A stretch of DNA of 64,000 nt from Candidatus Margulisiibacteriota bacterium (GCA_018823125.1 JAHJIW010000005.1:142542-206541); one strand, 5' to 3'; positions 1 to 16,571 are shown, counted from the first letter of the stretch. Notes: generated by a model not told the origin, from the letters alone. A program made the numbers and translations.

Positions 1-1625
1 ACTTTTGACCAATCAATACAACTTTCTATGTCCATCTCATAGTTTAACTGCTTCCATTTTGTTCCATGTTTAACAATGAAAACCGGCAGAAGAATTTGAG
101 CGGCCTTTTCTTTAAATTCTTTTCTCAACTTATACGTTTTAACACCCTTAGTTATTCCTTCTTCATCTGGCATTTTGTCGGCAACGACTTGCCCAGCCAG
201 ATCGCCCAAACCTTCGTCTTCAAAACCATCTCTAATGCTGGCCAGAATATTGGCAGCCTTTTGCTGGAAGGTAAAAACATAGCTTTCGTCTAAATCCTTC
301 ATTTTAGTCTTACGCGCGAATGGTTGACGAAGTATCCGGCCAACCAGTTGTGTCATAGCATTCTTAGAGCTGGGATTCGTAAGGACAGTTAAGATGTAGG
401 CAAAGGAGCAATCCCAGCCCTCCTGCAATGCCTGCTTTGTAATGATGTACCTGATAGGGCAGTCTTTAGCATAAAGATCGACCCCTTCAATTTCCTTTAA
501 TTCGGCTGAAGTAACAGCTACCTGATCTTCCGGCACACCTGCTGTTTTAATAAGATATTCACGAACGTCCTCAGAATGGATATATTTACTTCCTCGCTGA
601 TCCTTACCCGTTCTTTCTGCCTGAATAAGACAAATAGGCCTGATATAAACCCCTGAATTAGCTTGATATTTCTTTGCAATTTTCTGCAAATGGTTTGTTT
701 TTTCAATGCTTGCCAGCAAGGTATTTTTCCAATCCGGACTGGCTTTATTAATGACATGAAGATCAAGCTTGATCATTTCTTCCTGATTAAGCTCAACCCC
801 TCTAATGTCCACAAGTATATTACTGTTTTTATGTGGAGTAGCAGACAGTTCAACTATTATCGAAGGATTGAATCCGCGCAAAGTGTCCTGAGCGGTTTCA
901 CTGTAGGCCTTATGACCTTCATCGAGGATAATTACTGGAGACAATATCCGCAAGGTGTTACCGAGGGAGGTTTTAATCTGCTTTCCCCAAAACCCCTTAT
1001 CACTGCCATAAACATCAAGGTTGGGAAATCGCTCTAATATCTTTTTGTGCTCAGTGATCTTATCCTCTGAAGGGAAGAATTCCATAAAACCGCCATTATC
1101 TTTAAAAATTCTTAATGTCTCTTTGCTTTTTCTTGAGGCAGAAGGGAGCATAAGCATCAGCACAGCCAGACTTTCTTCAATATCCAGGGGAGTAAAACGA
1201 TCGGTCTTTTCGAGAATAATAGTTCTACCGCCGCTGGCAATATCCAGGTGCTGTCTGTAAGGGTGTTCTCTATTCCGTAAATTTTGAATAGTTTGATGAT
1301 ATATCTGATTTGTTGGTACAACCCATAAAATTAAGCCGGTCCTTTTCTTGCGGTATACAGCATTGATCAGGTCTATTGTTTTAACCGCTAATAAAGTTTT
1401 TCCGCCGCCGGTAGGAATTTTGAGACAGAAATTTGGCAAGAATTGACCTAATCCGTTTTTCCTTGAATGATAAGCTCTGCCCACATTGGCTTTTTCCCAA
1501 GCTTTTAAAGGGAAATCTATGTCCAGTTCAAGATTGTCTTTTGATTTTTTTTGCCATTCAGTGAGGTGCTTAAGGTAATCTTTTATTTGGTCTAATGTTT
1601 TTAGTTGATAATCTTTTAGCTCCAT
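1..1625 (-). CDS. res: Type III restriction enzyme Res subunit (SF2 helicase-nuclease), 3' end truncated by window edge
   Basis: Hand translation of the reverse strand from the ATG at 1625-1623 reads without a stop to position 1: MELKDYQLKTLDQIK...FCLKIPTGGGKTLLAV (Walker A), VIILDEGHKAY (DEGH motif II), LVGRILRQP (motif VI). It starts 3 nt after the mod stop. It is absent from the ORF track because it has no in-window stop. Confidence 0.8.
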   Translation of the reverse strand, partial: MELKDYQLKTLDQIKDYLKHLTEWQKKSKDNLELDIDFPLKAWEKANVGRAYHSRKNGLGQFLPNFCLKIPTGGGKTLLAVKTIDLINAVYRKKRTGLILWVVPTNQIYHQTIQNLRNREHPYRQHLDIASGGRTIILEKTDRFTPLDIEESLAVLMLMLPSASRKSKETLRIFKDNGGFMEFFPSEDKITEHKKILERFPNLDVYGSDKGFWGKQIKTSLGNTLRILSPVIILDEGHKAYSETAQDTLRGFNPSIIVELSATPHKNSNILVDIRGVELNQEEMIKLDLHVINKASPDWKNTLLASIEKTNHLQKIAKKYQANSGVYIRPICLIQAERTGKDQRGSKYIHSEDVREYLIKTAGVPEDQVAVTSAELKEIEGVDLYAKDCPIRYIITKQALQEGWDCSFAYILTVLTNPSSKNAMTQLVGRILRQPFARKTKMKDLDESYVFTFQQKAANILASIRDGFEDEGLGDLAGQVVADKMPDEEGITKGVKTYKLRKEFKEKAAQILLPVFIVKHGTKWKQLNYEMDIESCIDWSK

Positions 1626-1628
1626 AAT

Positions 1629-3308
1629 TTATCTAGCCATTCTATAAATTTCAAAAGGCAGTTGCGCGAATTCGATACGCAACTCATCGAGGAATTCCTG
1701 ATCAAGATATTTTGTAGGAGCAAAAACCAATCGTTTCTTTTTGCGAAAAGGACCCAACGACTTAGCACGATCCAGAGTAAGGGCGGTATTCTTTAAATAA
1801 GCCAGGTCAGGTTTATAGAAAAGGTAAACCTCATATTCGTCGTTTTCCCCGATATAACCACTTTTAATATCCACTTCTTTCTCCTTGAATTCCTCTCCAG
1901 TTGCTGTGTAGAAAACATATCTGGCCAGTTCTTTAAAAGAGGGTAAATTCTTGCCTGAAAGGATATTTTCAATCTCTATCGGTTTGCCTAATTCAAAAAA
2001 ACTAAACGAACCGTCCAATCCTTTCTTAAGCTCTTCATCTTTTGCCTTTGGAACTCCTTTTGTAATCCTTCTAATCCTTTCTGCTGTGATCTTATCGGCA
2101 TAATCTTCACATTCGACAAGTACAAATTTACGGTTTCCACCATCTTCTTTATTTAAATCAAGAACCGCATGGGCGGTTGTTCCGGAACCAGAAAAGGAAT
2201 CTAGCACAATGTCATTATCACCTGATCCCAATTTAATGCATTTCTTAATTAAATCCACTGATTTGGGAAAATCAAAAGGGCTCTCTCCATTGAAAATTTC
2301 TCTCAACACTTCCTTGCCATTTTCATTATTTATTTCCTTTTCTATCCATAAAGCTTTTGCCTTTGTAACTGCTGTTTTGCCATCGTCGGTTAGTAGATAA
2401 TCTTTCCTGTATATCCTCCACGCACCGGTTGACACTTTTCTGCCAAGTAAAATATCAGTATTCTCCTTAACCTTCTTTTGTCCCCATGTCCAACAACCAT
2501 CTACCCCTTCTGAATTTCTAGGCAATACTTCCACCGAATAAGTTTTATCCCTTTTAAGAGATACTTTCTCTGTGCGAGGATTAACATAGATAGGGAAAAA
2601 TAGATTTGGGCGGTTATTCCGATTAAACACGGGGTTGCGGTTTCTTAATTCTAATTTTCTGAATTTGCCCTTTTTATCTTCTTTGTTATATTCTGAAAGT
2701 GCTTCGCCTTCTTTTGTAACTAGATTAATTGAGGTTTCTAATAGAGCATTTTTTGAATATAAAAGTATATATTCATGTGTCTTCGCAATGAATCTATCCA
2801 ATGTTCTTCCCCTTGGATTTAATTGGACAACAAGGCATCCAATAAAATTATGTTCTCCGAATATATCATCCATTAACATTCTTAAATTGTTAATCTCATT
2901 ATCATCAATAGAAATAAAAATAACTCCATTATCTGACAACAGTTCTCGCAATAATTTTAGTCTTGGCATCATCATACAAAGCCATTTGTCATGGCGAGTC
3001 AAATCATCTTTATCAACAACTTTGCCTAACCATTCCTGCATCATGGGAGAATTAACATTATCATTGTATGCCCATTTTTCATTGCCTGTATTATAGGGTG
3101 GATCTATGTAGATACATTTAACCTTGCCAGCGTAAGCAGGCAGTAGCGCTTTTAGCGCCAACAAGTTATCACCATGAATAATAAGATTATCATTAAGCGA
3201 TACTTCTTTGGTCAAACTTTTAGATTTGACGGGAACTAATTCATGGTATTTGACAGAAAGATGAAGATTTTGGACGAATTGCTTACCTTTGAACTTTAGT
3301 TGGGCCAT
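1629..3308 (-). CDS. mod: Type III R-M Mod subunit, beta-class N6A/N4C DNA methyltransferase
   Basis: 559-aa ORF. IYIDPPYNTG (DPPY catalytic motif) precedes VLDSFSGSGTT (FxGxG AdoMet motif), the beta-class order typical of Type III Mod. Immediately upstream of res. Confidence 0.85.
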   Translation of the reverse strand: MAQLKFKGKQFVQNLHLSVKYHELVPVKSKSLTKEVSLNDNLIIHGDNLLALKALLPAYAGKVKCIYIDPPYNTGNEKWAYNDNVNSPMMQEWLGKVVDKDDLTRHDKWLCMMMPRLKLLRELLSDNGVIFISIDDNEINNLRMLMDDIFGEHNFIGCLVVQLNPRGRTLDRFIAKTHEYILLYSKNALLETSINLVTKEGEALSEYNKEDKKGKFRKLELRNRNPVFNRNNRPNLFFPIYVNPRTEKVSLKRDKTYSVEVLPRNSEGVDGCWTWGQKKVKENTDILLGRKVSTGAWRIYRKDYLLTDDGKTAVTKAKALWIEKEINNENGKEVLREIFNGESPFDFPKSVDLIKKCIKLGSGDNDIVLDSFSGSGTTAHAVLDLNKEDGGNRKFVLVECEDYADKITAERIRRITKGVPKAKDEELKKGLDGSFSFFELGKPIEIENILSGKNLPSFKELARYVFYTATGEEFKEKEVDIKSGYIGENDEYEVYLFYKPDLAYLKNTALTLDRAKSLGPFRKKKRLVFAPTKYLDQEFLDELRIEFAQLPFEIYRMAR

Positions 3309-3419
3309 ATCTAGTCTCCTTGTGTTACGAATTATCTAACTCAAATTCTACTCCCTCCCCACAAAAAATCAACAACCCTTTCCTTTATTGACAGGGGAAT
3401 GGGGGAGTGGGGGTTTAGA

Positions 3420-4055
3420 TTAAGGTAATTCTTGATCAGCGTCGAATTTCTTTAGTATCTTTTTTAATTTGATGTCATCTTCAAAGTGAGCTTTATCAAG
3501 ATCCATAAGCAACAATGAACCGTTTTTTGAATTTGTTCTAATGCAAAGATATTTTTGCTTACAATAAAGTCTTTTGTCCACTGGATGACGATAAGTTATA
3601 TAAACTAGAATGCAAGGAATCCTAATCTGTTTAATTTCCTTTTCCAAATCTGAAACGTAGTATCTTGGTTCTTTAAAATATCTATCTTCAATAGAAAATA
3701 CTTTAGAAGAGTTTGGCGGGAGGTCTTTGATGGTTCTCCAGCTTTTCCCTCCAGAAATCCCACCTAGGACTTTTTCCTCTAAGATGCCTACGGTTCTCGC
3801 CAATAAATAAATATTAATGTCATCTGCGGAGGTAGCTCCGTCATTGGAAATAATTAGATCGCATTGAGTTCTATTATTTTTGATTTCAAAAGCTACGAAT
3901 AGGGATGGTTCTTTTGCAAGATCAAGAATTAAAATGGTGAAATATAGTGTAGCGCCCGCTAAAATTAAAACCAAGAACCCACCGATAAACTTAAATGCTT
4001 TTATCATTGACGGCGATATCCAATTAATGATTTTCGAAATATGCATATTTGACAT
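3420..4055 (-). CDS. Hypothetical protein with one N-terminal TM helix, defence-island neighbour
   Basis: 211-aa ORF. The N-terminal stretch IGGFLVLILAGATLYFTILILDL is hydrophobic. I recognise no motifs. Sits between the R-M genes and the HEPN gene on the same strand. Confidence 0.5.
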   Translation of the reverse strand: MSNMHISKIINWISPSMIKAFKFIGGFLVLILAGATLYFTILILDLAKEPSLFVAFEIKNNRTQCDLIISNDGATSADDINIYLLARTVGILEEKVLGGISGGKSWRTIKDLPPNSSKVFSIEDRYFKEPRYYVSDLEKEIKQIRIPCILVYITYRHPVDKRLYCKQKYLCIRTNSKNGSLLLMDLDKAHFEDDIKLKKILKKFDADQELP

Positions 4056-4070
4056 CTGCTGACTGAGAAA

Positions 4071-5063
4071 TTATTGTTTTATTAGATATTTAACAAGTTT
4101 TACCCCACCGTCAATTCCCTTTTCTAATACAGATCTATCAATATCTTTTTCCTTTATTTCTCCATGAATAATCCTGTTGCGTATTTTGCGCAAAGCATTG
4201 ACGGCCGCTAAACTTTCTTTCATTTTTTTAAACTTGCTACCACTCAAACTTAATGGCAAAACTATATTTAAGACATTATTAAAAGATAGTTCATCTTTAA
4301 GATCTTTCATTTTGTTATTGCTTTGCCATTTGTTTCTTAATATCCTATAAGAATGTTCCACCAACATTGCTTCTAGCATAATTGAACATTCTAATACCGC
4401 AAATTTTTTCTTATTATATAAAAATTCAGATTGTATGCGAAGAATCTGGAGGATTTCTTCTTGAGGGAAATCATTTACACTAATTGCGTAATTCATCTTT
4501 ATCCACTTATCTTTTGTAATCAATTCCTTTTTTTTAAAAAGAGGATTTCTTTTCCTGTTCCCTTTAGGGATTTTCGGTTTAAAATTCTGAAAAGTTTTCC
4601 CCTGATAACACCATCTAACTGGAGCTCGATATCCTGGCTCATCAAAGAAAAGATCAAATGATTTTTTAAGGGGAGGACCCATAAAATGCTTCATGCCGCC
4701 GATGGTGCGACAAGTCATTTCGAATTGATACATGACTTGTTCATAAATACTATATATCTTTTTTGCGGTTTGAAAAGAAAGTTTACCTGAGGTTTTTAGC
4801 CCCCTAATAAAATCAGCCGGCGGATTATCATATTCAATTTCTATGGTTGAATTGTGCATAATTTCCAGATTTTTTCTTTTTGCAGGAGTTGAAAGGTGTT
4901 TATGATCATCAATCGGGTCTTGCAACAAAAACTTAACTTTGCATTTATCAATATAAAAAGTCAAAGGAGTTTTGTAATCTTTAGCTACCCATTTCCAAGT
5001 TCCAAAAAGTGGTATATCAGCGAGACTTAAATCAATCTTAATTAGCACTTTATTTTTTGACAT
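4071..5063 (-). CDS. HEPN-domain protein (Abi-like) with N-terminal domain of unknown function
   Basis: 330-aa ORF. The C-terminal ~110 aa contains ...SLAAVNALRKIRNRIIHGE, i.e. R-N-x3-H, the Rx4-6H HEPN RNase motif. Confidence 0.55.
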   Translation of the reverse strand: MSKNKVLIKIDLSLADIPLFGTWKWVAKDYKTPLTFYIDKCKVKFLLQDPIDDHKHLSTPAKRKNLEIMHNSTIEIEYDNPPADFIRGLKTSGKLSFQTAKKIYSIYEQVMYQFEMTCRTIGGMKHFMGPPLKKSFDLFFDEPGYRAPVRWCYQGKTFQNFKPKIPKGNRKRNPLFKKKELITKDKWIKMNYAISVNDFPQEEILQILRIQSEFLYNKKKFAVLECSIMLEAMLVEHSYRILRNKWQSNNKMKDLKDELSFNNVLNIVLPLSLSGSKFKKMKESLAAVNALRKIRNRIIHGEIKEKDIDRSVLEKGIDGGVKLVKYLIKQ

Positions 5064-5116
5064 AATTTTTATATAGCCTAATTCGTGTTAGCGATAAATA
5101 GAATCCAAAGTTCTCC

Positions 5117-5314
5117 CTACTTCCTAAACCAAAAACTATATAACGGTATAATCGCACATAAAACTGCTAATACGATTAAAATAGGGTAGTCGATTTTTAA
5201 TAGTACCGGCAAAAGTTTTACGATAACGATGGTGGCGAAGAAAACTGTGGCTTTAGTTAATCCGATATCCCAAATATTCAGCTTTTTTACTCTTTCGTTA
5301 AAATAGTTAAACAT
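5117..5314 (-). CDS. Small membrane protein (2 predicted TM helices)
   Basis: 65-aa ORF. Two hydrophobic stretches (ATVFFATIVIVKLLPVLL; ILIVLAVLCAIIPLYSFWF). It is the last gene of the minus-strand operon. Confidence 0.35.
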   Translation of the reverse strand: MFNYFNERVKKLNIWDIGLTKATVFFATIVIVKLLPVLLKIDYPILIVLAVLCAIIPLYSFWFRK

Positions 5315-5326
5315 GGTTCACCTCTT

Positions 5327-6970
5327 TTATTTTTTTCTGGATCTTATCCAACGCCAGATGAATACTATCAAAACCAGCAGCAGAACAAAAGGTGAAATTA
5401 GTACCAGAACACTCTTGATCATCATCCAGAAACTGATTGGCTTGGTGGTCATCAAGAGGCGATTGACGGGTGTATCCTTGATGCCCAGCGTGGCAAAATT
5501 TTGGGTAAAGTACCAATCGTGGCCAACATAATTTACTCCTTCGGCAAAACCATAACCGGTGAGTTTTTTGTTTCCCCGTTTGCCTACGACGCGGGTAGCG
5601 CCTTCACGGTACTCGGCTGAGCTGGCAAAATACAATAATTGGTTATGTACAATGGGTTTCATGGTAAAGGTTATGTCTAAAGACGGGAAACTAAATGTCC
5701 AGCCATTGGGGGTCCAGCAATGGGACCTTTTACTAAGAATCCAGTCGGTGATGGTCAGCGTTCCTTTTAACTCCGAAGGCACGCCATTCTTATCAACATA
5801 TTTTCCTTCGCAAGCTTTGGTCATATTAGGCGGAGGGTTGGGTCCTTTGTTATCAATGTCTTCTCCGCCTTCGTGTGGTGCCGCAACTGTGATCTCGGTA
5901 TCATCATCCAGCTGGATGCAGTACCAGTCCCAACCATATTCCTCAGATTTTCCCGTAAAATAATTGATGGTGTTGGAAAGGGCCCGGATATATAAGTTGG
6001 GTACATAACCGATCGGCATCAAGCCCGCCACCCATTGATTATCCATCCACATCTTACCTTTGACCTTAATGGCCTTACCTTTATAAGTGATCACTCCATC
6101 CGCCATGATGTGCGGGATCGAATAATACCAGCAGCCTAAACCATAAATATCCGGCGTCTTGCCTTGATCGCCCTGATAAAGGATCGGTTTAGCGCTGTGC
6201 ATGGTCATTTCAACCTTCATCGGAATATTCGGATCATTCCATTGCAGCTTCATTGGAAAGAGGGCGCCTTTTTGTAAACTCCAGGCTTTATTTTTCCCTA
6301 CCGCAACCAGGAAGGGATCGGCTTGGTATTTAATTAAACCGGTCGAGCCGGCAATGACCGCGCTGCGGCCCTGGACCTGCAGGTTTTTATCGCCAAAACT
6401 GACGGCGTACTGGAGTTCGGAAATCTGGTTATCCATCAGGCTTAAGTCCATCGCTTTAGCAAAAGGTGGTGCTATCATCGCCCGTCGAAAAACAACACAT
6501 TCGATACCGTAATCATTGCCGGCCGCATCTTTTAAATTGCCCACAAAAAAGACCCAGCCAAACTGGTAGGCCAGGTCCGCGCCCAGGTCCTGAGGAAAGA
6601 TTAATTTTTTCTTATCGTCAATCGTTTTAAAACCATAAAAATAATCTGGTCCGGTAAAGTTGACCATCCGGATCATCTGGATAGGGGTCAGCCCCTTAGC
6701 GCTGATCTTTTTAAAAAGCGCGTATCTTTCGGGATAGCGGGGGACTAACGGCAGCCAGTGTTTTTCCAGCATATTGAACATCTTAGCCATGCGCTGGCCA
6801 GCGTCGGTAATATTATTTTTAAGTTTTGCCTTAATGCTAGCCGGAAGTGGGGCCGAAGATGGCAGCCACAGCACGTTTCGAATATCATTTTCAATTTTGG
6901 CCTCATCCGCCGCCGCAACTCCGGATGCCAGCATAACCAGCAAAATCAAACACACGATTAATTTTTTCAT
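5327..6970 (-). CDS. Secreted protein with signal peptide and C-terminal TM anchor, function unknown
   Basis: 547-aa ORF. N-terminus MKKLIVCLILLVMLASGVAAADEA (signal peptide). C-terminus VLVLISPFVLLLVLIVFIWRWIRSRKK (TM helix plus basic tail). Confidence 0.6.
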   Translation of the reverse strand: MKKLIVCLILLVMLASGVAAADEAKIENDIRNVLWLPSSAPLPASIKAKLKNNITDAGQRMAKMFNMLEKHWLPLVPRYPERYALFKKISAKGLTPIQMIRMVNFTGPDYFYGFKTIDDKKKLIFPQDLGADLAYQFGWVFFVGNLKDAAGNDYGIECVVFRRAMIAPPFAKAMDLSLMDNQISELQYAVSFGDKNLQVQGRSAVIAGSTGLIKYQADPFLVAVGKNKAWSLQKGALFPMKLQWNDPNIPMKVEMTMHSAKPILYQGDQGKTPDIYGLGCWYYSIPHIMADGVITYKGKAIKVKGKMWMDNQWVAGLMPIGYVPNLYIRALSNTINYFTGKSEEYGWDWYCIQLDDDTEITVAAPHEGGEDIDNKGPNPPPNMTKACEGKYVDKNGVPSELKGTLTITDWILSKRSHCWTPNGWTFSFPSLDITFTMKPIVHNQLLYFASSAEYREGATRVVGKRGNKKLTGYGFAEGVNYVGHDWYFTQNFATLGIKDTPVNRLLMTTKPISFWMMIKSVLVLISPFVLLLVLIVFIWRWIRSRKK

Positions 6971-6994
6971 TTTACGCCTCCGATTTAATTATGG

Positions 6995-8221
6995 TTACCG
7001 GGCTTCCAGCCAGTTATAAATAACTTCGTAAACCCGATCCCGGGCGTATTCGCCGACCAGGATATCGAGATGGCCGAAGCCTTCTAATAGCACGTATTGG
7101 CGGTCGGTGCTGGTAATCATCTCATAACCTTCGTGTTTCCAGCGGTATTGGTATCCTAAAGCGTCAGTCCACTGAGTTGAAGCAAAAACCAGGATCGGAA
7201 TATTGACCGAGGCGATATTATTAATAAACTGCAATGTGGTATCGGGTGGATTTCCTACCCAGTTGCCAAGATAAGCATCTTCCAGATAATCAACCAGCGG
7301 CCAGTGATCGACGCCGGCTTCAATTACAAAATCAAGCAGGACGGCGACCGAGGCATAGCCATTTAAAACATTGGTTAACTGTCCATCTCCCCAAACCGTA
7401 TAGAATTGATCAGCAAGATAATCGGATACGGTGGCAAAGCCGGGTACCGGGCTGGGTGCATTTGGTCCTTCGGCATAGTACGTATAAACTGCTTCGCCAA
7501 ATGGAGTCGCAAAATTAGTGATCTCAACATCATAATAAAGTTCGCCAGGATCAAGCCCCCAGCTTGCAAAGAGAGCGCGGTTGGCGGGAGTATCTCCGGC
7601 GGCCAGTGCGGCATAACCAACATCGATATCCATTTGATTTTCAGCTTCCGGAGAGCCGTTCGCCTCCCAGGGCGATCCGTCCATGGGGATCATGCCGGCT
7701 AGGTCTTCTTGCCATCGGGCGCAGGCATAAAGATAAACGTAGCGGGCGCCGGTGCTGTGGCCAATTAGATAAACCTTATCAACCGCGGTGATTTCTTTAA
7801 TAAATGAGATCGCACTCTGAATATCGCTTAAAGTAACGCTGGTTGTAAAACCGGCCATCTCAGAGATATCGGTTGCTCCCTCGGTTATAAAACTGCTGCG
7901 GTAATCGACACTAAAAACCGTATAGCCGCGGTTGGCTAGGTAGATGCGGAAATCATAATTTTCAGAGGTGGTATAGAGCCGGGCACTGGTTCCGGACGGT
8001 GGTAGATAGACAACTACACTCTTACTGCTTGTAACATTTTTTAAACTGAGTCGTCGCAGACCGACGACGTTATTACGCATCCAAAAAGTTTCTTGTAAAG
8101 TAGTACCGACATCCGTGGTTGAAATTAAATTCCATTGATCAGCGGCATTATCAAAAAATCCGCAGCCTGCCCATAGGAACAGCATAAATCCACAGATTAA
8201 AATGAAGCCGAGTCTTTTCAT
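6995..8221 (-). CDS. Lipoprotein alpha/beta-hydrolase (esterase/lipase-like)
   Basis: 408-aa ORF. Lipobox LWAGC after an N-terminal hydrophobic region. Nucleophile elbow VYLIGHSTGARY (GxSxG). Its start ATG overlaps the stop of the upstream zinc-ribbon gene (ATGA). Confidence 0.7.
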   Translation of the reverse strand: MKRLGFILICGFMLFLWAGCGFFDNAADQWNLISTTDVGTTLQETFWMRNNVVGLRRLSLKNVTSSKSVVVYLPPSGTSARLYTTSENYDFRIYLANRGYTVFSVDYRSSFITEGATDISEMAGFTTSVTLSDIQSAISFIKEITAVDKVYLIGHSTGARYVYLYACARWQEDLAGMIPMDGSPWEANGSPEAENQMDIDVGYAALAAGDTPANRALFASWGLDPGELYYDVEITNFATPFGEAVYTYYAEGPNAPSPVPGFATVSDYLADQFYTVWGDGQLTNVLNGYASVAVLLDFVIEAGVDHWPLVDYLEDAYLGNWVGNPPDTTLQFINNIASVNIPILVFASTQWTDALGYQYRWKHEGYEMITSTDRQYVLLEGFGHLDILVGEYARDRVYEVIYNWLEAR

Positions 8222-8397
8222 TTTTTCTTTCTGCTGCCTTTACCCTGTACACTTTTTTGGTACTTACGGTCCTCGTTCTTCATGGTCTTAAAGTTTCTGC
8301 GGTTGACCTCCGCTACACAGTGTGAGCAAAAAACGCTTCCTTTGGAAACTACTCTGCCGCACTCGCATTTTGGCGCGCCCCTTTTTATTTTTTTCAT
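8218..8397 (-). CDS. Small zinc-ribbon protein (59 aa), not in ORF track
   Basis: Hand translation gives MKKIKRGAPKCECGRVVSKGSVFCSHCVAEVNRRNFKTMKNEDRKYQKSVQGKGSRKKK with CxC...CxxC. AAGGAG sits 8 nt upstream. The gene abuts the ygiQ stop and overlaps the hydrolase start. Confidence 0.45.
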   Translation of the reverse strand: MKKIKRGAPKCECGRVVSKGSVFCSHCVAEVNRRNFKTMKNEDRKYQKSVQGKGSRKKK

Positions 8398-10106
8398 ATC
8401 AACTCCTTAATTAATTTTGTTTTCCCCATTTGTTTCAATGCTTTGGCCACCAGCCGGTAGTTATTTTTCAGATACGGCTGCAGCAGGGCCTTTTGAAAAC
8501 TCCTCTCTTCACTTTTAGGCACATGTACGGCTTTACCGGTAAAAGGATTAAGACCAGTATAGTACATACAGGTCGAAATTGTCATGGGGGTAGGCGTAAA
8601 ATTTTGCACCTGCTCAATTCTAAGCTTATGTTTCTTTAAAAATAAGGACAGGTCCAGTGCGTGTTTAAGGGTGCTGCCGGGATGTGAAGCGATGAAGTAG
8701 GGGATCAAAAACTGCTTCTTTTTATGTTTTTTATTCAATTGTATAAACTTATCCTTAAATTCCAGAAATTTATTTATTTTCGGTTTGCCCATCATGAGCA
8801 AAACTTCTTCACAGATATGCTCCGGCGCTACGCTCAGCTGACCGCTGATATGATATTTAACTAACTCATCCAGGTATTCGTTGTCCAGCAGCGCCAGGTC
8901 ATAACGGATGCCGGAATTAATAAACAAATGCTTTACCCCCGGCAACTGACGCAGTTCTTGCATCAGCTTAAGCGAAGGCTTTTGGGAAAAATCCAGACTG
9001 GGACAAATATTGGGGTAAATACAGCTGGCCCGGGTACAACCATCCGCTTTTAAACAAGTAATCCCGTACATATTAGCGGTGGGTCCGCCGACATCCAGAA
9101 TGGTGCCTTTAAAATCCGGCCTCGGCACAATTTTCTCCTCGATTTCCTTTTTGATCGACTCCGGACTGCGGCTGATAATATATTTACCGTGATGTTGTGA
9201 GATCGCGCAAAAAGCGCATCCGCCAAAACAGCCGCGGTGGGAAATGGTGGAATGTTTAACAAAACCCCAGGCCGGGATCGGGGTATTTTTGTATTTAGGA
9301 TGCGGCGCGCGTTTGAACGGCATCTCAAACAGCTGGTCCAATTCCTTGGGTGATAAATTCTGCGGCGGAAAAACCACCAGGTAGCGGCCCTGGCAGTGCT
9401 GAATGATAATTCTCGGGTGTTTTTTTCGTCCTTCTAAATAATATAGTTTAGAGGCTTCGGCAAATTTCTTTTTATCACTGGAAACTTCTTCGAAGCTGGG
9501 AACAACTAATGCATCTTTATAAGCTGCAATATCCTTAACTATGATTGCGGTGTTTGGAATTTTAGATTTTGGTAATTCGGATTTGTTTAGGGTTTCTGAT
9601 TTAGGATTTAGGATTTTTGCAATTTCTAAAATTCCCTTTTCACCCATGCCGTAAACCAAGTAATCGGCTTTGGCATCAAACAAAACAGAGCGGCGCACCT
9701 TATCTGACCAAAAATCGTAATGCGCAAAACGTCTTAAACTAGCTTCGACTCCGCCTAAAACAATCGGCACCCCGGGAAAGAGATGCTTGAGCTTACTGGT
9801 ATAAACGATAGTTGCCCGGTCAGGGCGGTGGCCGGCTTCATTGTTTGGAGAATACATATCATTGCGCCGGATTTTTTTGTCCGCGGTATAATTGGCCACC
9901 ATCGAATCGAGATTGCCTGCCGAAACGCCAAAAAACAGTTTGGGCTTGCCTAACTTTAAAAAGTCTTGATCTGTTTTCCAATCCGGCTGATCAATGATTC
10001 CAACCGAGAAGCCGTGCTTTTCTAAATAGCGGGCGATTAGGGCGGTGCCAAAGCTGGGATGGTCGATATATGCGTCGCCGCTGACTAAAATTATGTCGAA
10101 TGTCAT
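8394..10106 (-). CDS. ygiQ: YgiQ-family radical SAM protein (UPF0313)
   Basis: CxxxCxxC (GCFGGCAFCAI). The N-terminus MTFDIILVSGDAYIDHPSFG is YgiQ-like. The track ORF extends to 10184, but the Met at 10106 matches the family N-terminus and avoids overlap with the typA promoter. Confidence 0.75.
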   Translation of the reverse strand: MTFDIILVSGDAYIDHPSFGTALIARYLEKHGFSVGIIDQPDWKTDQDFLKLGKPKLFFGVSAGNLDSMVANYTADKKIRRNDMYSPNNEAGHRPDRATIVYTSKLKHLFPGVPIVLGGVEASLRRFAHYDFWSDKVRRSVLFDAKADYLVYGMGEKGILEIAKILNPKSETLNKSELPKSKIPNTAIIVKDIAAYKDALVVPSFEEVSSDKKKFAEASKLYYLEGRKKHPRIIIQHCQGRYLVVFPPQNLSPKELDQLFEMPFKRAPHPKYKNTPIPAWGFVKHSTISHRGCFGGCAFCAISQHHGKYIISRSPESIKKEIEEKIVPRPDFKGTILDVGGPTANMYGITCLKADGCTRASCIYPNICPSLDFSQKPSLKLMQELRQLPGVKHLFINSGIRYDLALLDNEYLDELVKYHISGQLSVAPEHICEEVLLMMGKPKINKFLEFKDKFIQLNKKHKKKQFLIPYFIASHPGSTLKHALDLSLFLKKHKLRIEQVQNFTPTPMTISTCMYYTGLNPFTGKAVHVPKSEERSFQKALLQPYLKNNYRLVAKALKQMGKTKLIKELI

Positions 10107-10124
10107 ATCTTTAGTATAACAGAA

Positions 10125-10133
10125 TGGTATAAT
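10125..10133 (+). promoter_or_regulatory. Extended -10 promoter TGGTATAAT of typA, positioned for a leaderless transcript
   Basis: aaTGgTATAATatccggATG. The -10 ends 6 nt before the ATG at 10140 and there is no SD. Confidence 0.5.
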
Positions 10134-10139
10134 ATCCGG

Positions 10140-11903
10140 ATGAAAAAGATTCTTAACGTAGCCATTATCGCCCACGTCGACCACGGGAAGACCACTTTAA
10201 CCGATCATCTCTTGCGACAGGGCGGGGCATTTTCGGAGCGCGAAGAGGTTCGGGATCTGGTAATGGACTCTAACGAACTCGAACAAGAGCGCGGCATCAC
10301 CATCTTCTCCAAAAACTGCTCGATCCACTATAAAGATTACAAAATTAATATCGTCGATACTCCGGGCCACGCCGATTTCGGTTCCGAAGTTGAACGCGTC
10401 TTAAAAATGGTCGATTCGGTTTTACTGCTGGTCGATGCTAAAGAAGGCCCCATGCCGCAAACGAAGTTTGTCTTGGCCAAATCGCTTAACCTCGGACTCA
10501 AACCGATCGTGGTCATTAATAAGATCGATAAAAAAGACCACCAGGCCGATAAAGTCATGGATATGATCTTTGATCTGTTTGTTAAACTGGACGCCAATGA
10601 CGAACAACTTGATTTTCCGGTTATCTATACTATTTCCAGAGAGGGGATTGCAAAATTAGAACTGGAGGATGAGGGCAAAGATCTGACTCCGCTCTTTGAA
10701 ACCATTATCACCAAAGTTCCCGCTTACCCCGACAAAACCGACCAGCCGCTGCAGTTTCAGGTTACCAATCTGGCCTACGACGATTATGTCGGCCGGGTTG
10801 CAATCGGACGGGTTAACAGCGGACAACTAAAAAAAGCGCAGAACGTGGTGGTTTGTAAGCGTGACGGCTCGGTGAAACCCGGCAAAATTATCAGGCTGCA
10901 AACCTTTGAAGGACTGAAAAGCGTGGAGGTCGAAGAGGCCGACTGCGGTGACATTGTGGCGGTCGCCGGTTTTCCGGATATTACGATCGGGGAAACCATC
11001 TGTCTGGCCGATAATCCGATCCCTTTACCATTATTAGTAATCGATGAACCAACCATGTCCATGGAATTCTTAGTCAACAATTCTCCCTTCGCCGGCCGCG
11101 AAGGTAAATATGTGACCACCCGGCAAATTAAAGAGCGCCTGGAGCGCGAATTACAAACCAACGTCGGCATGCGCATGGAAACTTTGGACAACATTGAAGG
11201 CTATAAAATATCCGGCCGCGGCGAACTGCATCTTTCAATTTTACTCGAACAAATGCGCCGGGACGGTTACGAAGTTCAGGTCTCACAGCCCAAAGTAATC
11301 TTTAAAACCGTTCACGGCGAAAAGATGGAGCCAATTGAAAAGGCCCACATCGCGGTCCCGGAAAAAAGTGCCGGAACGGTAATTGAGAAACTGGGCAAGC
11401 GCAAAGGTGAAATGATTGATATGTTAACTAAAAACGGGACATCCTTTCTTACCTATGTAGTACCCAGCCGGGGATTACTCGGTTTTCGCGCCGCCTTTAT
11501 TATGGATACCAAAGGCGAGGGGATTTTACATCACGGTTTCTATCGCTACGAAAGATATAAAGGCGAAATCGCCGGCCGTCAAAACGGCGTATTAATATCC
11601 GGCAACACCGGTAAAACCACTTCCTATGCTTTAAATAATATTCAGAAACGGGGAAAACTTTTTGTCGGGCCAGGAGTAGACGTTTACTCAGGAATGATTA
11701 TTGGTGAAAATGCCCGCAACCAGGATATGCCGGTTAATCCAACCAAAGAAAAGAAAAAATCCAACATCCGCACCACCAGTACAGATGAAGCGGTTCAACT
11801 AACTAAACCAATTAAAATGACATTAGAAGCCGCGCTTGAATTTATCGAGCAGGATGAGTTAATCGAAGTTACCCCAAAAAGCATACGGTTAAGGAAAAAG
11901 TAG
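10140..11903 (+). CDS. typA: Translational GTPase TypA/BipA
   Basis: MKKILNVAIIAHVDHGKTTL, DTPGHADF, NKID G-domain motifs. 587 aa. Confidence 0.9.
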   Translation: MKKILNVAIIAHVDHGKTTLTDHLLRQGGAFSEREEVRDLVMDSNELEQERGITIFSKNCSIHYKDYKINIVDTPGHADFGSEVERVLKMVDSVLLLVDAKEGPMPQTKFVLAKSLNLGLKPIVVINKIDKKDHQADKVMDMIFDLFVKLDANDEQLDFPVIYTISREGIAKLELEDEGKDLTPLFETIITKVPAYPDKTDQPLQFQVTNLAYDDYVGRVAIGRVNSGQLKKAQNVVVCKRDGSVKPGKIIRLQTFEGLKSVEVEEADCGDIVAVAGFPDITIGETICLADNPIPLPLLVIDEPTMSMEFLVNNSPFAGREGKYVTTRQIKERLERELQTNVGMRMETLDNIEGYKISGRGELHLSILLEQMRRDGYEVQVSQPKVIFKTVHGEKMEPIEKAHIAVPEKSAGTVIEKLGKRKGEMIDMLTKNGTSFLTYVVPSRGLLGFRAAFIMDTKGEGILHHGFYRYERYKGEIAGRQNGVLISGNTGKTTSYALNNIQKRGKLFVGPGVDVYSGMIIGENARNQDMPVNPTKEKKKSNIRTTSTDEAVQLTKPIKMTLEAALEFIEQDELIEVTPKSIRLRKK

Positions 11904-13112
11904 TTATCTTCTCTTTCTTCTTCGAAAACGCGAACGTTTAGGGCCAAAACTTCTGGCCTGGGTTGCGTAAAAGCCGAGTTCATTAATTTCCGGGTGTTTA
12001 ACAATTGGTAAAGCTTTTTGCATTACTCTTTCGATACTGCGAACATCGCCTTTTTGGTCTGGAGTGGCAAAAGAGATGGCGCGGCCTTCGTGACTAGCCC
12101 GGCCGGTGCGGCCAATGCGGTGTACGTAATTTTCGGCATCATCCGGAAGGTCAAAATTAATCACTAACTCTATTTCTTTAACATCGATCCCGCGGGCCGC
12201 GATGTCGGTAGCCGCTAAGATTCGGAATTTTCCAGTTTTAAAACCATCTAGCGCATCTCTTCTTTGCCGGAGCGAGCGATCCGAATGGATTTCGGCCACA
12301 TTGTGGCCCATTTCCCTGATGCGGCGGGTAATTCTAGCCGCACCTCTTTTGGTGCGCATAAAAAGAAGGACCGTACCGCGATATTGATGGAGCAATTTTT
12401 CTAATAATTGAATTTTATCTTCTTTGCTGATAATAAACAGTTCTTGGGTAACATTTTTAGCGGCGGTGCCGGAACGGGCAATTTCGACACTGACCGGCAG
12501 TTTCATGTACTGAGTGGCAATCCTGACTATTTTTTCCGGGATGGTGGCCGAGAAGAGCATGGTTTGTCTGTCTTTGGGCAAATTTTTGAGCACCTGTTCA
12601 ATTTGCGGCATAAAACCCATGTCGAGCATGCGATCCGCTTCGTCCAGCACCAGGATTTTAAACTCATTCAGGCGGAAGGTTCTTTGTCTTAAGTGATCGA
12701 TCAGCCGTCCCGGAGTAGCAATGATTATCATTGGGTTGTGACGCAGCATTCTTAATTGATTGCTCATGGAGGCGCCGCCAATCAGAACCGCGGATTTAAG
12801 CCCCATCGGTCGAGCAAGTTTTTGCAGTGCTTCATCAACCTGGAGGGCGAGTTCTCGGGTAGGGACCAGAATCATGGCCCGGCCCGGACCCTGGGCTAAG
12901 CGTTGGATCATCGGAATACCAAAGGCCATGGTTTTTCCGGTTCCGGTTTGAGCTACACCAACAATATCTTTACCTTCAATGGCGATGGGAATGGCTTTGA
13001 ATTGGATCGGGGTGGGCGTTTTAAACTGCATGCGGTTAATCAGTTCCATTATCTTTGGCGCGATACCTAGTCCGTAAAAGTTGGCATTATTTTGTTGTTC
13101 TTCGTTTTTCAT
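11904..13112 (-). CDS. DEAD-box ATP-dependent RNA helicase
   Basis: AQTGTGKT, DEAD, SAT and HRIGRTGR motifs, plus an RRRKRR basic tail. Confidence 0.9.
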   Translation of the reverse strand: MKNEEQQNNANFYGLGIAPKIMELINRMQFKTPTPIQFKAIPIAIEGKDIVGVAQTGTGKTMAFGIPMIQRLAQGPGRAMILVPTRELALQVDEALQKLARPMGLKSAVLIGGASMSNQLRMLRHNPMIIIATPGRLIDHLRQRTFRLNEFKILVLDEADRMLDMGFMPQIEQVLKNLPKDRQTMLFSATIPEKIVRIATQYMKLPVSVEIARSGTAAKNVTQELFIISKEDKIQLLEKLLHQYRGTVLLFMRTKRGAARITRRIREMGHNVAEIHSDRSLRQRRDALDGFKTGKFRILAATDIAARGIDVKEIELVINFDLPDDAENYVHRIGRTGRASHEGRAISFATPDQKGDVRSIERVMQKALPIVKHPEINELGFYATQARSFGPKRSRFRRRKRR

Positions 13113-13155
13113 GTTGTAATTATAACATTTTTTGGGAAAACGTGCTGTTTTAATT

Positions 13156-15033
13156 CTATCCTTTCACGATCTTCCCGATTTTCTCCTGCATAATCTTCAG
13201 GAAGGTTCCCCAGTACTCATTATATGTTGTATTTTTAATCAGCCACGGACTTAATACGCAGGATCGCAATACATAGACGCTTTTTTGTTTATCCCATTGT
13301 TCCTTTGGAATACCCAGCACCGCCACAAAAGAAGCCGGAGCATCGCCGTAGGCGTCGGTGGCTAAACTGGTTTTAGATGTGATCCAGTCGTTAGCGTAAA
13401 CCGGGCCGGAATTGTAAGAGCTTAGTTCATACAGTTTTTCGTTGAGATCGTCCATTTTGGCCAGATCAGTATTGCCAACGGCGTTGAAAGCAAAGTCGAC
13501 GATATTAAAATCCGGTTTGGTTAATGGATGGACGATATATTTTTTACCGTTAACTTCAAAGGCCGGTTCGGCTTTGAGCGACATGTAAAATCTTTGGGCA
13601 CCGGTGATGGAGCGGCCGATAATGCGGCCGTAGCCGGTGATGTTTAATGGAATAACTTCATGCGAGGCCCAAACTGCGGCGGCAGTGGCGCCGGCTTTCG
13701 ATCCTTCTAAAATATAACTGCCCAGCAGCATCGGATCGTTGCCTTTTTCAAAAACGTAAGCGGCAAAATATGAAATTAAATCCAAAATGCGGCGGTCTTT
13801 CATTACCACTGCGCCGGCAGCGTAGGGGACGTAGCCCATTTTATGAGGATCAACCGTAATTGAATCGGCTTCGCTAAAAGCTTTATAAGCTTCGTATACA
13901 TCTATAGGCGGCCAATCGATGTCTTTATGTATAATGCCTTCTTCGTGCCATCTATGTTTCATCTTATGCATATCCATAAATTTGTCATTTTCATCTAAAA
14001 AGATAGCGCGGGCGTAGCCGCCGTAAGCGCCGTCGATATGGAAATAAAAAGAGATGCCTTGCTTTTCGTATTCGTCGCGCAGTTTGGCAATTTCGTGAAC
14101 TTCATCCACCGCGCCTTCTTCGGTAGTGCCAACCACCGCCACGACACCTAAAATCGGAGTCTTGGTTGCAATAAATTTATCGATGGTTGCTTTTAAAACA
14201 TTAACGTCCATGCGGTAATTATCTTTCACCTGGACATTAATTAAGTTGTCGGTACCGATCCCTAAAATGTCGGCGGCTTTCGCCCAGGAGTAGTGTCGGG
14301 ATTGCGGCACCAGCAGGACGCCCAGATTTTCTTTGGACATGCCAACCCCGCGGGCCGAGAGGGCGCGGACTTCGTCAAATTTATTAGCGGCTTTTACCTT
14401 ATCAACCAGGTCTAAAACTTTACTGACCGGTAGATTCAAGAGCTGCCAGTCATCTAATCCTTTGACCAAATTTGGCAATACGGCTTTAACTGCCATGGGG
14501 AAGGACTTGAGATTACGCGCTACCCAAAATGCTTCGTAGTTAGCCACGTGTCCGCCCGAAGTAATGTGTCCCCAGCCTTTGTTGGCGTCAAACCCCAACA
14601 TGGTGCAAAGTTGTTTGCCGGCCTGAATTTCAAGTCCGGTAGTAGCGGGAGAAGCTTCAAAAGCACAGTTATTCGGGTTGTATAAAATAGTTGCCATGTA
14701 AGCTAAGTTGGCGGCCATCAAAGTATCTGAATTCATGTGACCCAGATATCTGGGCGAAAACCAGGGCATCGAAGTAGTTTTTAATTTTCCGGAAAGCTCC
14801 AGCAGGGTTTCTTTGGTTCTTCTCAAAGTATCTTTATAAAGTTGTTCGTCCTGTTCCTCCAGTGAAACTGCAGGCTTATCATCCGGATGAAAATCCCGGC
14901 GCCATTGGATGTGTTCTTCCATTAAAAAGTTTAACGTATTGGTAAAAAATCCCTGATTTTCGGATTTGGGGCCCAGAAACAGTGCATCCACATTTACCTT
15001 AGCCGAATTATTATCTCTTTTAAACCAACCCAT
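13156..15033 (-). CDS. tyrDC: Group II PLP-dependent amino-acid decarboxylase, tyrosine decarboxylase-like
   Basis: 625 aa, the size of bacterial TyrDC. HIDGAYGGYA and SITVDPHKMGY (PLP lysine). The N-terminus VDALFLGPKSEN...EEHIQWRRDFHPDD resembles enterococcal/lactobacillal TyrDC. Confidence 0.75.
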   Translation of the reverse strand: MGWFKRDNNSAKVNVDALFLGPKSENQGFFTNTLNFLMEEHIQWRRDFHPDDKPAVSLEEQDEQLYKDTLRRTKETLLELSGKLKTTSMPWFSPRYLGHMNSDTLMAANLAYMATILYNPNNCAFEASPATTGLEIQAGKQLCTMLGFDANKGWGHITSGGHVANYEAFWVARNLKSFPMAVKAVLPNLVKGLDDWQLLNLPVSKVLDLVDKVKAANKFDEVRALSARGVGMSKENLGVLLVPQSRHYSWAKAADILGIGTDNLINVQVKDNYRMDVNVLKATIDKFIATKTPILGVVAVVGTTEEGAVDEVHEIAKLRDEYEKQGISFYFHIDGAYGGYARAIFLDENDKFMDMHKMKHRWHEEGIIHKDIDWPPIDVYEAYKAFSEADSITVDPHKMGYVPYAAGAVVMKDRRILDLISYFAAYVFEKGNDPMLLGSYILEGSKAGATAAAVWASHEVIPLNITGYGRIIGRSITGAQRFYMSLKAEPAFEVNGKKYIVHPLTKPDFNIVDFAFNAVGNTDLAKMDDLNEKLYELSSYNSGPVYANDWITSKTSLATDAYGDAPASFVAVLGIPKEQWDKQKSVYVLRSCVLSPWLIKNTTYNEYWGTFLKIMQEKIGKIVKG

Positions 15034-15034
15034 T

Positions 15035-16474
15035 TTAATTACCTCCTTGAAGTTTTTCTTTCCAACTGGGACGTCTAAACTGATAAATGATTAACGGAAT
15101 CGCGGCGAAAATTATCGTGCCGAACAGCAGAAATAAAACATAAAATCTGATATCGGTGATATGCATTTGTGATGGCGGGAAAAAGCCTACAAAAATGGCC
15201 AGGATCGAGGTGACGATTCCGATTCCGGCAATCAGCCACATGCCTAATTTTCCTCCGGGAACTTTATAAGTCCTCGGCACATTGGGCGCCGAATAACGCA
15301 AACGTATTCCAGCCGCCAACATCAGAATATACATAATTAAATATAGAAGGATCGTCATGTTGAGCATCATTAAAAATACGGTATTGATATTAGGAATGAC
15401 GATAAACATCAAGCCAAAAAGTGAAATTAAAGCAGCCTGGATGATGAGCATCGTAGTTGGAATTCCGTTTTTGTTAACCTTTTGCATGATGGGGGGGAGG
15501 TCGCCATTTTCGGCAGTGGCTAAAAGCCCTTTAACCGGACCAACAACCCAGGTACTGACCTGACCGATGGCGCCCAAACCGGCCAGCAGCGCCATGACCG
15601 GAACCAGCCAGGATACATTAAATCTATTGAAGAAAATTTTAAAGGCTTCCATGATGCCGGCGGTTAAACTGATTTCGTTATGCGGAACCACGGCGCCTAC
15701 GGCAAAACCGCCTAAAATATTAATTAAGATTAAAAGCAGTCCGGCAAAAAAGATGGCGATAGGGTAGTTGCGCTGGGGATTATTTACTTCTGCGGCGTGG
15801 GAAGCCGAAGCTTCGATGCCGGCGTAAATAAAAATTACTCCGGCCAGCAGGGCGATATTAGTGATTTTACTTAAGTCGGGAATAAAATTACTAACCGTTA
15901 GCGATAGATTTAACTGAATCGGGTTTCCGCCGAAAATATATACCAGACCAAAGCCAATAATAAATATGGCCGGAATAAAAACTCCGCCGATTAAACAGAC
16001 GGTGCTGATCCATCCCGAAGTTTTCATGCCGCGCATGTTTAACAGGGTTAAGATCCAATAGGTGATGACAATCACGGCTAATACATAAAACTTATTGCCG
16101 GCTAAAGCGGGATTAATCGCAAAGGCTAATGATCCGGCGACAAACGACAAAATCATCACCATGCCGAATACCATTTGCACCCACTGCATCCAGATTGCTA
16201 AAAATCCGATGCGGTCGCCAAAAGCTTCTTTAACCCAGACGTAAACTCCGCCTTTTTGCGGCCATCCGGTGGCCAACTCTGCCGAGATGAGAGCCGTGGG
16301 CATCAGAAAAGCCAGCACCGCTACCAGACACAGGAAAATCATTTGCATGCCGGTTTCGGCCAGGATCGGAATGTTTCGAACACTAACGGCAAACGCGGCG
16401 GTGATCATAACCAGAGTGAAAACGTTGATCTTGTTCGGAGGAGTTACCGGTTTATTATTCATAAATACCTCCAT
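15035..16474 (-). CDS. tyrP: APC-family amino acid permease/antiporter (tyrosine:tyramine exchanger-like)
   Basis: 479 aa with about 12 hydrophobic segments. Ends 2 nt upstream of the decarboxylase. Confidence 0.7.
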   Translation of the reverse strand: MEVFMNNKPVTPPNKINVFTLVMITAAFAVSVRNIPILAETGMQMIFLCLVAVLAFLMPTALISAELATGWPQKGGVYVWVKEAFGDRIGFLAIWMQWVQMVFGMVMILSFVAGSLAFAINPALAGNKFYVLAVIVITYWILTLLNMRGMKTSGWISTVCLIGGVFIPAIFIIGFGLVYIFGGNPIQLNLSLTVSNFIPDLSKITNIALLAGVIFIYAGIEASASHAAEVNNPQRNYPIAIFFAGLLLILINILGGFAVGAVVPHNEISLTAGIMEAFKIFFNRFNVSWLVPVMALLAGLGAIGQVSTWVVGPVKGLLATAENGDLPPIMQKVNKNGIPTTMLIIQAALISLFGLMFIVIPNINTVFLMMLNMTILLYLIMYILMLAAGIRLRYSAPNVPRTYKVPGGKLGMWLIAGIGIVTSILAIFVGFFPPSQMHITDIRFYVLFLLFGTIIFAAIPLIIYQFRRPSWKEKLQGGN

Positions 16475-16554
16475 TAAGTGATATGTGAAGTATTATAACA
16501 CCCCAAAAGGTGGTTTCAACCGCAATTGTTGTCCTTTAAAAACTCTCAAAATTT

Positions 16555-16563
16555 TGGTATAAT
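16555..16563 (+). promoter_or_regulatory. Extended -10 promoter TGGTATAAT of otsA, near-leaderless
   Basis: tttTGgTATAATtactatctATG. The -10 ends 8 nt before the ATG at 16572 and there is no SD. Confidence 0.5.
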
Positions 16564-16571
16564 TACTATCT

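Follow-up and report, generated by a model that had tools for sequence, protein, structure and literature searches.

Genes for a probable HEPN-domain protein and a membrane protein beside a Type III restriction-modification system in a Candidatus Margulisbacteria genome: likely neighbors rather than a module

The stretch of DNA analyzed here is a 64,000-nt segment of a Candidatus Margulisbacteria genome (JAHJIW010000005.1, positions 142542-206541; referred to below as the window). It begins with four genes on the minus strand (Table 1), which are the mod and res genes of a Type III restriction-modification (R-M) system and, upstream of these, a gene for a 211-aa transmembrane (TM) protein and a gene for a 330-aa protein whose C-terminal region carries the R-N-x3-H motif of HEPN RNases. 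The question raised by this locus is whether the genes for the 330-aa protein and the TM protein form a two-gene abortive-infection module, as an earlier note made from the sequence had proposed, whether the 330-aa protein is coupled to the R-M system, or whether these genes are independent of one another. The best reading, favored with moderate confidence, is that they are co-located but independent defense genes, with the 330-aa protein being a Tha/AbiD-F-like single-gene abortive-infection RNase. Most likely, the TM protein does not work with the HEPN protein and is an accessory in its own right.

The relatives of the two proteins occur apart from each other. A hidden Markov model (HMM) of the TM family gave no match at E<=1 in 51 loci of the HEPN family, which form 40 non-redundant groups (for about 28 of these, 700 bp or more of downstream sequence is present, in which a partner could be seen), and an HMM of the HEPN family gave no match in 12 TM-family loci. 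HEPN and TM genes therefore do not constitute a conserved module, and the proposal that they are a pair, which the variable neighbors of both families also speak against, was not borne out. The remaining descriptive claims of the earlier note stood up well. All four genes lie at the coordinates it gave, and profile searches agree with the Type III motifs that it listed (DPPY and FxGxG in Mod; Walker A, DEGH and QxxGRxxR in Res, which starts 3 nt after mod). The res gene does run off the window start, and it had been missed since the open reading frame (ORF) listing omits ORFs that run off the sequence. The single N-terminal TM segment of the 211-aa protein and the C-terminal R-N-x3-H motif of the 330-aa protein are likewise present.

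The motif of the 330-aa protein, R295-N296-R-I-I-H300, is encoded at 4181..4164. A bare Rx4H motif is expected by chance in a protein of 330 residues. Conservation of the motif goes beyond this, as R295-N296-x3-H300-G301 is invariant in 21 of 21 aligned homologs that share 32-45% identity, giving the Rx4-6H spacing together with a polar residue after R. Two glutamates, E225 and E231, are also invariant in the 21-homolog alignment and are located in a long helix ahead of the motif. The Pfam family HEPN_RiboL-PSP (PF18735) matches residues 241-329 over profile positions 80-187 of 191 (E=2e-5), and 20 of the 21 family members match PF18735 independently at E<=0.01 (best 2.5e-6). The CARF_HEPN models of PADLOC give weak matches over the same C-terminal segment. 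In the AlphaFold2 (AF2) model of the protein, which has a predicted local distance difference test score (pLDDT) of 77.7, the N-terminal half is alpha/beta and the C-terminal half is all-helical, with predicted helices at residues 202-215, 219-245, 249-258, 261-272, 275-299 and 310-329. The motif closes the 275-299 helix, and residues 249-272 form an insert between this helix and the one at 219-245. HEPN domains have a conserved acidic residue in helix 2, and inserts between helices 2 and 3 are typical of them (PMC3710099). The predicted helix order puts the motif exactly at its HEPN-domain position, and the model fits the published description. Taken together, the C-terminal half of the 330-aa protein is probably a HEPN domain.

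The N-terminal half of the protein has no match in Pfam, PDB sequences, Foldseek-PDB or BFVD, and a search of PDB sequences with the family profile returned noise only. The earlier description of a HEPN domain behind an N-terminal domain of no recognizable family thus appears to be right. Residues GTWKW (21-25), E115, R119 and G122 of the N-terminal domain are invariant in the first 21 homologs, and GTWKW is replaced by GAGKW or GASKW in the clade formed by L012-L016.

Known HEPN systems offer several comparisons. The C-terminal half of the 330-aa protein resembles the Ribo L-PSP-HEPN family (PF18735) in its profile match, in an Rx4H motif with N following R, and in a defense-associated setting; it differs in that its score falls below the family cut-off and in that nothing in the libraries is related to its N-terminal domain. 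The Ribo L-PSP-HEPN clade is distantly related to AbiD/AbiF, and fusion to an L-PSP endoribonuclease and an operon with ParB are among its features (PMC3710099). No Ribonuc_L-PSP or ParB match was found in the 330-aa protein or its neighbors, so the features by which the family was originally described are missing. The validated systems PD-T4-2, PD-T4-5, PD-T7-3 and ApeA are listed with PF18735 as their domain (PMC10952713), and of these PD-T4-5 is a distant relative of AbiF/D that provides abortive-infection defense (PMC9519451). A Pfam search of the 330-aa protein gave no Abi_2 match.

The closest likeness in overall design is to Tha, a single gene carried by Staphylococcus aureus prophages whose product is triggered by phage tail proteins (PMC11087260). 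Tha-1 is a non-specific RNase of 301 aa; its N-terminus is unassigned, residues 184-296 form a HEPN domain, and the motif RNSIMH occupies residues 265-270 (PMC11087260). Both Tha and the 330-aa protein are single-gene products of about 300 aa with an N-terminal half that cannot be assigned and a HEPN domain that starts near residue 184, and both have RN-x3-H about 30 residues from the C-terminus; a dimeric, non-specific abortive-infection RNase is the prediction for both. Homology to Tha-1 (gp03 of phage 80alpha) was considered and rejected, as an hhalign comparison of the family gave E=0.12 and a probability <1%, and tblastn against phages gave no match. Tha-1 itself weakly matches other Pfam HEPN families, DUF4145 and HepT. 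In addition, Tha is prophage-encoded with an antisense regulator, whereas phage and IMG/VR collections yielded no member of the 330-aa family.

By analogy with these systems, the 330-aa protein is proposed to work like the Tha/AbiD-F-type abortive-infection RNases without being a member of those families. In a mechanism modelled on the single-gene HEPN defense proteins Tha, PD-T4-5, AbiD/AbiF and ApeA, the protein would be latent as a homodimer and its N-terminal domain would sense an infection cue. The HEPN cleft, consisting of R295, N296, H300 and a conserved acidic residue, would then cut RNA in a metal-independent manner, and growth of the infected cell would stop.

Relatives of the 330-aa protein are scattered. 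A word-indexed search identified 22 homologs with 32-45% identity, a scan of GTDB genomes found 10 family loci and a metagenome scan 35 more, and removal of near-duplicates left the 40 non-redundant groups mentioned above. The family spans Nitrospirota, Thermodesulfobacteriota, Zixibacteria, Pseudomonadota, Thermoanaerobaculia and Margulisbacteria, and the exact 330-aa sequence is recorded as a hypothetical protein of a Candidatus Margulisbacteria metagenome-assembled genome. When all neighbors were clustered, just two families recurred, a BrnT-like toxin (4 groups) and a tyrosine integrase (3 groups). The immediate neighbors include housekeeping genes (NamZ, DJ-1/PfpI, MnmE, RsmE, PlsY and transporters), toxin-antitoxin genes (BrnT, MazF/PemK, PIN, RelE/HTH), KilA-N, a UvrD-PD-(D/E)xK helicase-nuclease, and integrases or resolvases. 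No conserved adjacent antitoxin gene, as would be expected of a type II toxin-antitoxin system, was found across the 40 non-redundant loci. In L012 (8396-8909), L013, L014 and L016, a BrnT-like toxin gene with a small downstream ORF is no more than about 1.5 kb away from the HEPN-family gene, and MazF/PemK-like pairs occur in L011 and L013. The copy in L016 (9960-10925) has an in-frame stop and a frameshift, which could mean either a pseudogene or an error in long-read assembly; direct translation shows the L014 copy to be intact with a non-ATG start.

An R-M neighbor was detectable, with the few query sequences that were used, in 2 of about 40 non-redundant HEPN loci, namely the window and L036. 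In L036 (325-9817), a homolog with 42% identity precedes, by 87 nt, a different Type III-like mod, whose 667-aa product matches EcoP15I Mod at 1e-26, and 2 nt further on is a gene for an 875-aa Res-like protein that has motifs I, VI and PD...ExK in the same order as the window Res. A tyrosine integrase gene lies about 3 kb upstream of this homolog, and L036 has no TM gene. The 330-aa family is occasionally, not regularly, found next to R-M genes. Given the variable neighbors and the rarity of R-M adjacency, the family behaves like a lone gene that variable or mobile regions carry as cargo. The closest homolog (L034, 4896-6981; 48% identity) lies 136 nt after a gene for a class III nucleotide cyclase that matches CyaB at 3e-12 (cytidylate cyclase also matched, at 7e-7), with an integrase-like gene nearby; this adjacency could reflect cyclic-nucleotide control or could be a coincidence.

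The TM protein has one N-terminal hydrophobic helix (residues about 23-44). The start annotated by NCBI is M17, which gives a protein of 195 aa and widens the gap to the 330-aa gene to 63 nt. No match to the TM protein was found in Pfam, PADLOC, NCBIfam or PHROGs. A word-indexed search had made it appear to be an orphan, which was overturned by an exhaustive phmmer search that yielded 21 relatives, all about 200 aa in length and 19-34% identical to the query over the full alignment; a repeat of the search with the resulting alignment added no further relatives. With the family alignment as input, AF2 gave a confident model with a pLDDT of 89.7 and a predicted template modeling score (pTM) of 0.78, in which the TM helix is followed by an immunoglobulin (Ig)-like beta-sandwich with one inserted helix and by a C-terminal helix. 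The best Foldseek matches combine a TM helix with Ig-like domains (E about 3e-4 to 1e-3, TM-score 0.25-0.36). This layout is shared with the KirBac C-terminal domain, an archaeal pilin, the TMEM106B luminal domain and a TRAP subunit (Ig-/LEA-2-like), with the difference that the likeness is one of generic fold only (8-16% identity) and justifies no functional inference. Across the family, the N-terminal side of the TM helix has 40 K/R and 9 D/E residues and the C-terminal side has 29 K/R and 26 D/E residues, from which the protein is probably N-in/C-out (type II) with the sandwich outside the cytoplasm. The TM protein is most likely an envelope-level accessory, and it probably displays an Ig-like beta-sandwich outside the cytoplasm.

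Eight independent genomic contexts of the TM family (Table 1) share no conserved partner. The family adjoins R-M, TIR or kinase genes in 5 of the 8 contexts and R-M genes in 3 of the 8. If R-M genes are assumed to account for about 1-2% of genes, the latter count is far above chance, although with so small a sample it is a lead. The two closest relatives of the TM protein, in L017 and L021, both directly follow a Type I hsdS, and the arrangement in L017 resembles a slot for cargo within a Type I operon. The 321-aa neighbor in L017 was considered as a possible relative of the 330-aa protein, and no relation was found.

Table 1. Features of the locus and contexts of the TM family (window positions unless an L number is given; L026 is the parent contig)
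Feature	Position	Strand	Remarks
330-aa ORF	5063..4071	minus	probable HEPN protein
N-terminal alpha/beta domain	4515..5063	minus	residues 1 to ~183
C-terminal all-helical domain	4071..4514	minus	residues ~184-330; probable HEPN RNase domain
211-aa ORF	4055..3420	minus	TM protein; 15 nt after 330-aa ORF
TM-mod spacer			111 nt, between 211-aa ORF and mod
69-nt direct repeat, copy 1	3343..3411 (L026 11653-11721)	minus	in TM-mod spacer, just before mod
mod	3308..1629	minus	559 aa
res	1..1625	minus	N-terminal 541 of 837 aa in window; runs off window start
69-nt direct repeat, copy 2	L026 15965-16033		just after res, outside window
Three small ORFs	L026 16091-18065		163, 97 and 103 aa; outside window, beyond res; complete the island
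65-aa ORF	5117..5314	minus	two hydrophobic segments; at GC transition, 12 nt after CrtC/AttH-like lipocalin gene
Flank	5327-10184	minus	ordinary core-like genes outside island
TM-family context	window
TM-family context	L017 (3-6399)		hsdS, TM, 321-aa weakly SIR2-like protein, 180-aa multi-TM protein, hsdR
TM-family context	L021 (1-1274)		after hsdS fragment
TM-family context	L023 (1223-5300)		after two TIR-domain proteins (ThsB-like PADLOC matches), before zinc-ribbon protein
TM-family context	L022 (171-3167)		after 741-aa Ser/Thr kinase-TPR protein matching PD-T4-6 models, 1e-97
TM-family context	L020		after TPR protein
TM-family context	L019		after RelA/SpoT C-terminus
TM-family context	L030 (member P0031)		between recO and tRNA synthetase gene

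Judged from its sequence, the R-M system is a canonical and routine Type III system that is complete on the parent contig. Mod has YIDPPYNTG near residue 69 and LDSFSGSGTT near residue 375, so that DPPY is N-terminal to FxGxG, and this order of motif IV before motif I is that of the beta class (N6-adenine type). The mod gene is preceded by an AAGGAG ribosome-binding site, and its product matches PADLOC MTase_III (2e-151) and Pfam N6_N4_Mtase (4.7e-36). The part of Res within the window contains KIPTGGGKT (motif I of superfamily 2, SF2), ILDEGHKA (motif II) and QLVGRILRQ (motif VI) and matches PADLOC REase_III (1e-149) and Pfam ResIII (6e-16). Full-length Res (L026 13439-15952) has its PD...ExK nuclease motif as C-terminal YPDF...VVETKG, which lies outside the window. 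The mod gene is directly upstream of res on the same strand. In its mod-then-res operon, its beta-class Mod and its SF2 Res with a C-terminal PD...ExK, the system resembles the EcoP15I/EcoP1I-type systems, from which nothing of substance separates it; here the cassette has 69-nt direct repeats on its flanks. Mod would methylate one strand of its site, and Res, with its SF2 ATPase and PD-ExK nuclease, would cut unmodified incoming DNA.

A repeat search and alignment of the parent contig indicated that the two 69-nt copies, which are 88% identical with their last 32 nt identical, exactly bracket mod-res. The cassette therefore looks like a discrete unit placed in the spacer downstream of the TM gene, and we infer that mod-res is an insertion accompanied by duplication or that a promoter module has been reused. 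A partial inverted copy with a 27-nt core is found at L026 17212-17238, at the right edge of the low-GC island. The repeat contains a promoter-like sequence, TTGATT-16-TAGAAT at 3372..3345, which is the sole such site in the TM-mod spacer; the yield of the promoter and terminator scan was not above shuffled expectation. The RNA fold of the spacer is unexceptional (z=0.8), and near the locus there is no Rfam match and no meaningful tandem repeat, so that nothing points to an RNA antitoxin. The last base of repeat copy 1 is where three independent short-read assemblies (L027-L029) stop. Strain variation at the TM/mod junction was considered as the reason for this shared end and set aside, since a repeat with an identical last 32 nt explains it more simply, the assemblies ending together because the repeat exceeds the assembler k-mer.

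The window holds the right-hand part of a low-GC island. GC content is 0.30-0.38 across positions 1500-5500 and 0.46-0.51 past about 5500, and on the parent contig the low-GC stretch extends for about 7.5 kb (about 9750-17250) and contains the 330-aa gene, the TM gene, mod, res and the three small ORFs, which are of no known family. Neither a tRNA gene nor an integrase was found in this stretch on L026. A gene for a YgjP-like metallopeptidase lies just past the island on the res side. On the other side, the 65-aa ORF at the GC transition has no family match in the Pfam, PADLOC, NCBIfam or PHROG libraries. All contigs of this species have it annotated as a gene, and it probably ends the neighboring core operon rather than belonging to the island. 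The flanking genes include those for a secreted CrtC/AttH-like double-lipocalin protein (547 aa), an alpha/beta hydrolase (408 aa), a 59-aa zinc-ribbon-like ORF and a YgiQ-type radical SAM protein. The low GC content, the signs of horizontal acquisition and the defense-type neighbors of homologs agree with the defense-island setting that the earlier note had assumed, and as it had also stated, neither accessory gene is matched by a named system in a PADLOC search. On balance, the region is likely a low-GC, horizontally acquired, defense-type island with three functionally separate units, which are the R-M system, the HEPN protein and the TM protein.

Several observations weigh against reading these genes as independent defense genes with a Tha/AbiD-F-like RNase among them. 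The PF18735 score of the window protein, 25.0 bits, is under the curated cut-off of 28.4, and the pTM of the 330-aa model is just 0.49. Foldseek searches with the full model gave no significant structural match in PDB or BFVD, the best HEPN-containing match being Csx1-Crn2 (E=1.8, probability 0.33), although the predicted helix order does place the motif as in HEPN domains. PADLOC gave no ApeA, PD-T4-5, PD-T7-3 or Abi match at E<=1. Phage, plasmid and IMG/VR collections yielded no member of the 330-aa family or of the TM family (the tblastn searches of phages and plasmids used both window proteins and two homologs as queries), and the topology of the TM protein is assigned from the positive-inside rule alone. 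Two further points concern how the genes are linked. The HEPN and TM genes are on the same strand with a gap of 15 nt, so co-transcription or a lineage-specific link is possible, and the L036 homolog is also directly upstream of a Type III-like mod-res, so some coupling to R-M is possible.

The short gap is the starting point for regarding the HEPN and TM genes as one two-gene abortive-infection module with the TM protein as membrane effector or anchor, likened to Cas13b-Csx28 or to the HEPN-TM system borne by phage-inducible chromosomal islands (PICIs). The two genes occur together on all contigs of this species, and the PICI system (Fillol-Salom et al. 2022, as cited in PMC11087260 and PMC12948488), compared here by its description in the citing papers, also places a HEPN gene beside one that encodes a transmembrane protein. 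Pairing in the window differs from it in not being conserved in any related locus, and a PADLOC scan revealed nothing relevant and no model that matches the pair. Given the lack of co-occurrence outside this species in the 51 HEPN-family and 12 TM-family loci, the variable neighbors of both families, and a sandwich domain that is predicted to be outside the cytoplasm and so apart from a cytoplasmic RNase, such a module is very unlikely. Coupling of the kind known from PrrC, in which the HEPN RNase would be held inactive by the Type III enzyme or would guard it, and would fire as a second line of defense once a phage anti-restriction factor disables the enzyme, is distinctly unlikely. Embedding of HEPN domains in R-M operons is common, PrrC being the paradigm (PMC3710099). 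The window shares with PrrC/RloC a HEPN RNase encoded beside a restriction system and the concept of a second-line, suicidal RNase, and L036 adds an independent family member before a different mod-res in an integrase-bearing island. Against this, the other loci are solitary among unrelated genes, the 330-aa gene adjoins a Type III system rather than being embedded in a Type I hsd operon, and the TM gene and the repeat-bounded junction stand between it and mod. Moreover, the 330-aa protein has no P-loop or ABC match in Pfam, NCBIfam or PADLOC and thus lacks an ABC-ATPase regulatory domain of the PrrC/RloC kind.

It is also conceivable, if unlikely, that the R-M system alone is defensive, the 330-aa protein being a selfish solitary toxin or addiction gene product or a HEPN protein of RNA binding or processing, and the TM protein an ordinary envelope protein. 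Homologs in L007, L008, L009 and L015 lie between housekeeping genes with no recognizable defense neighbor, the TM-family member P0031 is encoded between recO and a tRNA synthetase gene, and the L016 copy has a stop and a frameshift. Such roles are harder to reconcile with the patchy spread of the 330-aa family across phyla, its frequent toxin-antitoxin, integrase and KilA-N neighbors, the strict conservation of its catalytic-type residues, and the R-M, TIR or kinase genes beside the TM family. Independent defense genes therefore remain the favored reading. A more far-reaching proposal, that the 330-aa family is an unrecognized single-protein abortive-infection system and the 211-aa family a new, envelope-exposed Ig-like accessory that travels with R-M and other immune genes, is tentative. 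It would have a new alpha/beta sensor fold, marked by GTWKW, gate a HEPN RNase that is Tha-like yet evolutionarily separate, in a family so far confined to uncultivated lineages.

That two unknown genes are tightly spaced next to an R-M system was no evidence of a module in this case, as comparative context showed that they travel separately. What is new at this locus is a pair of uncharacterized families, one a HEPN variant with a new N-terminal domain and the other a membrane-anchored Ig-like protein found near immune genes. If the proposed roles are correct, the 330-aa family would add one more sensor domain to the single-gene HEPN abortive-infection proteins such as Tha, PD-T4-5 and ApeA, for most of which the triggers are unknown, and the TM/Ig-like family would be a candidate for an envelope defense function that is genetically linked to restriction systems.

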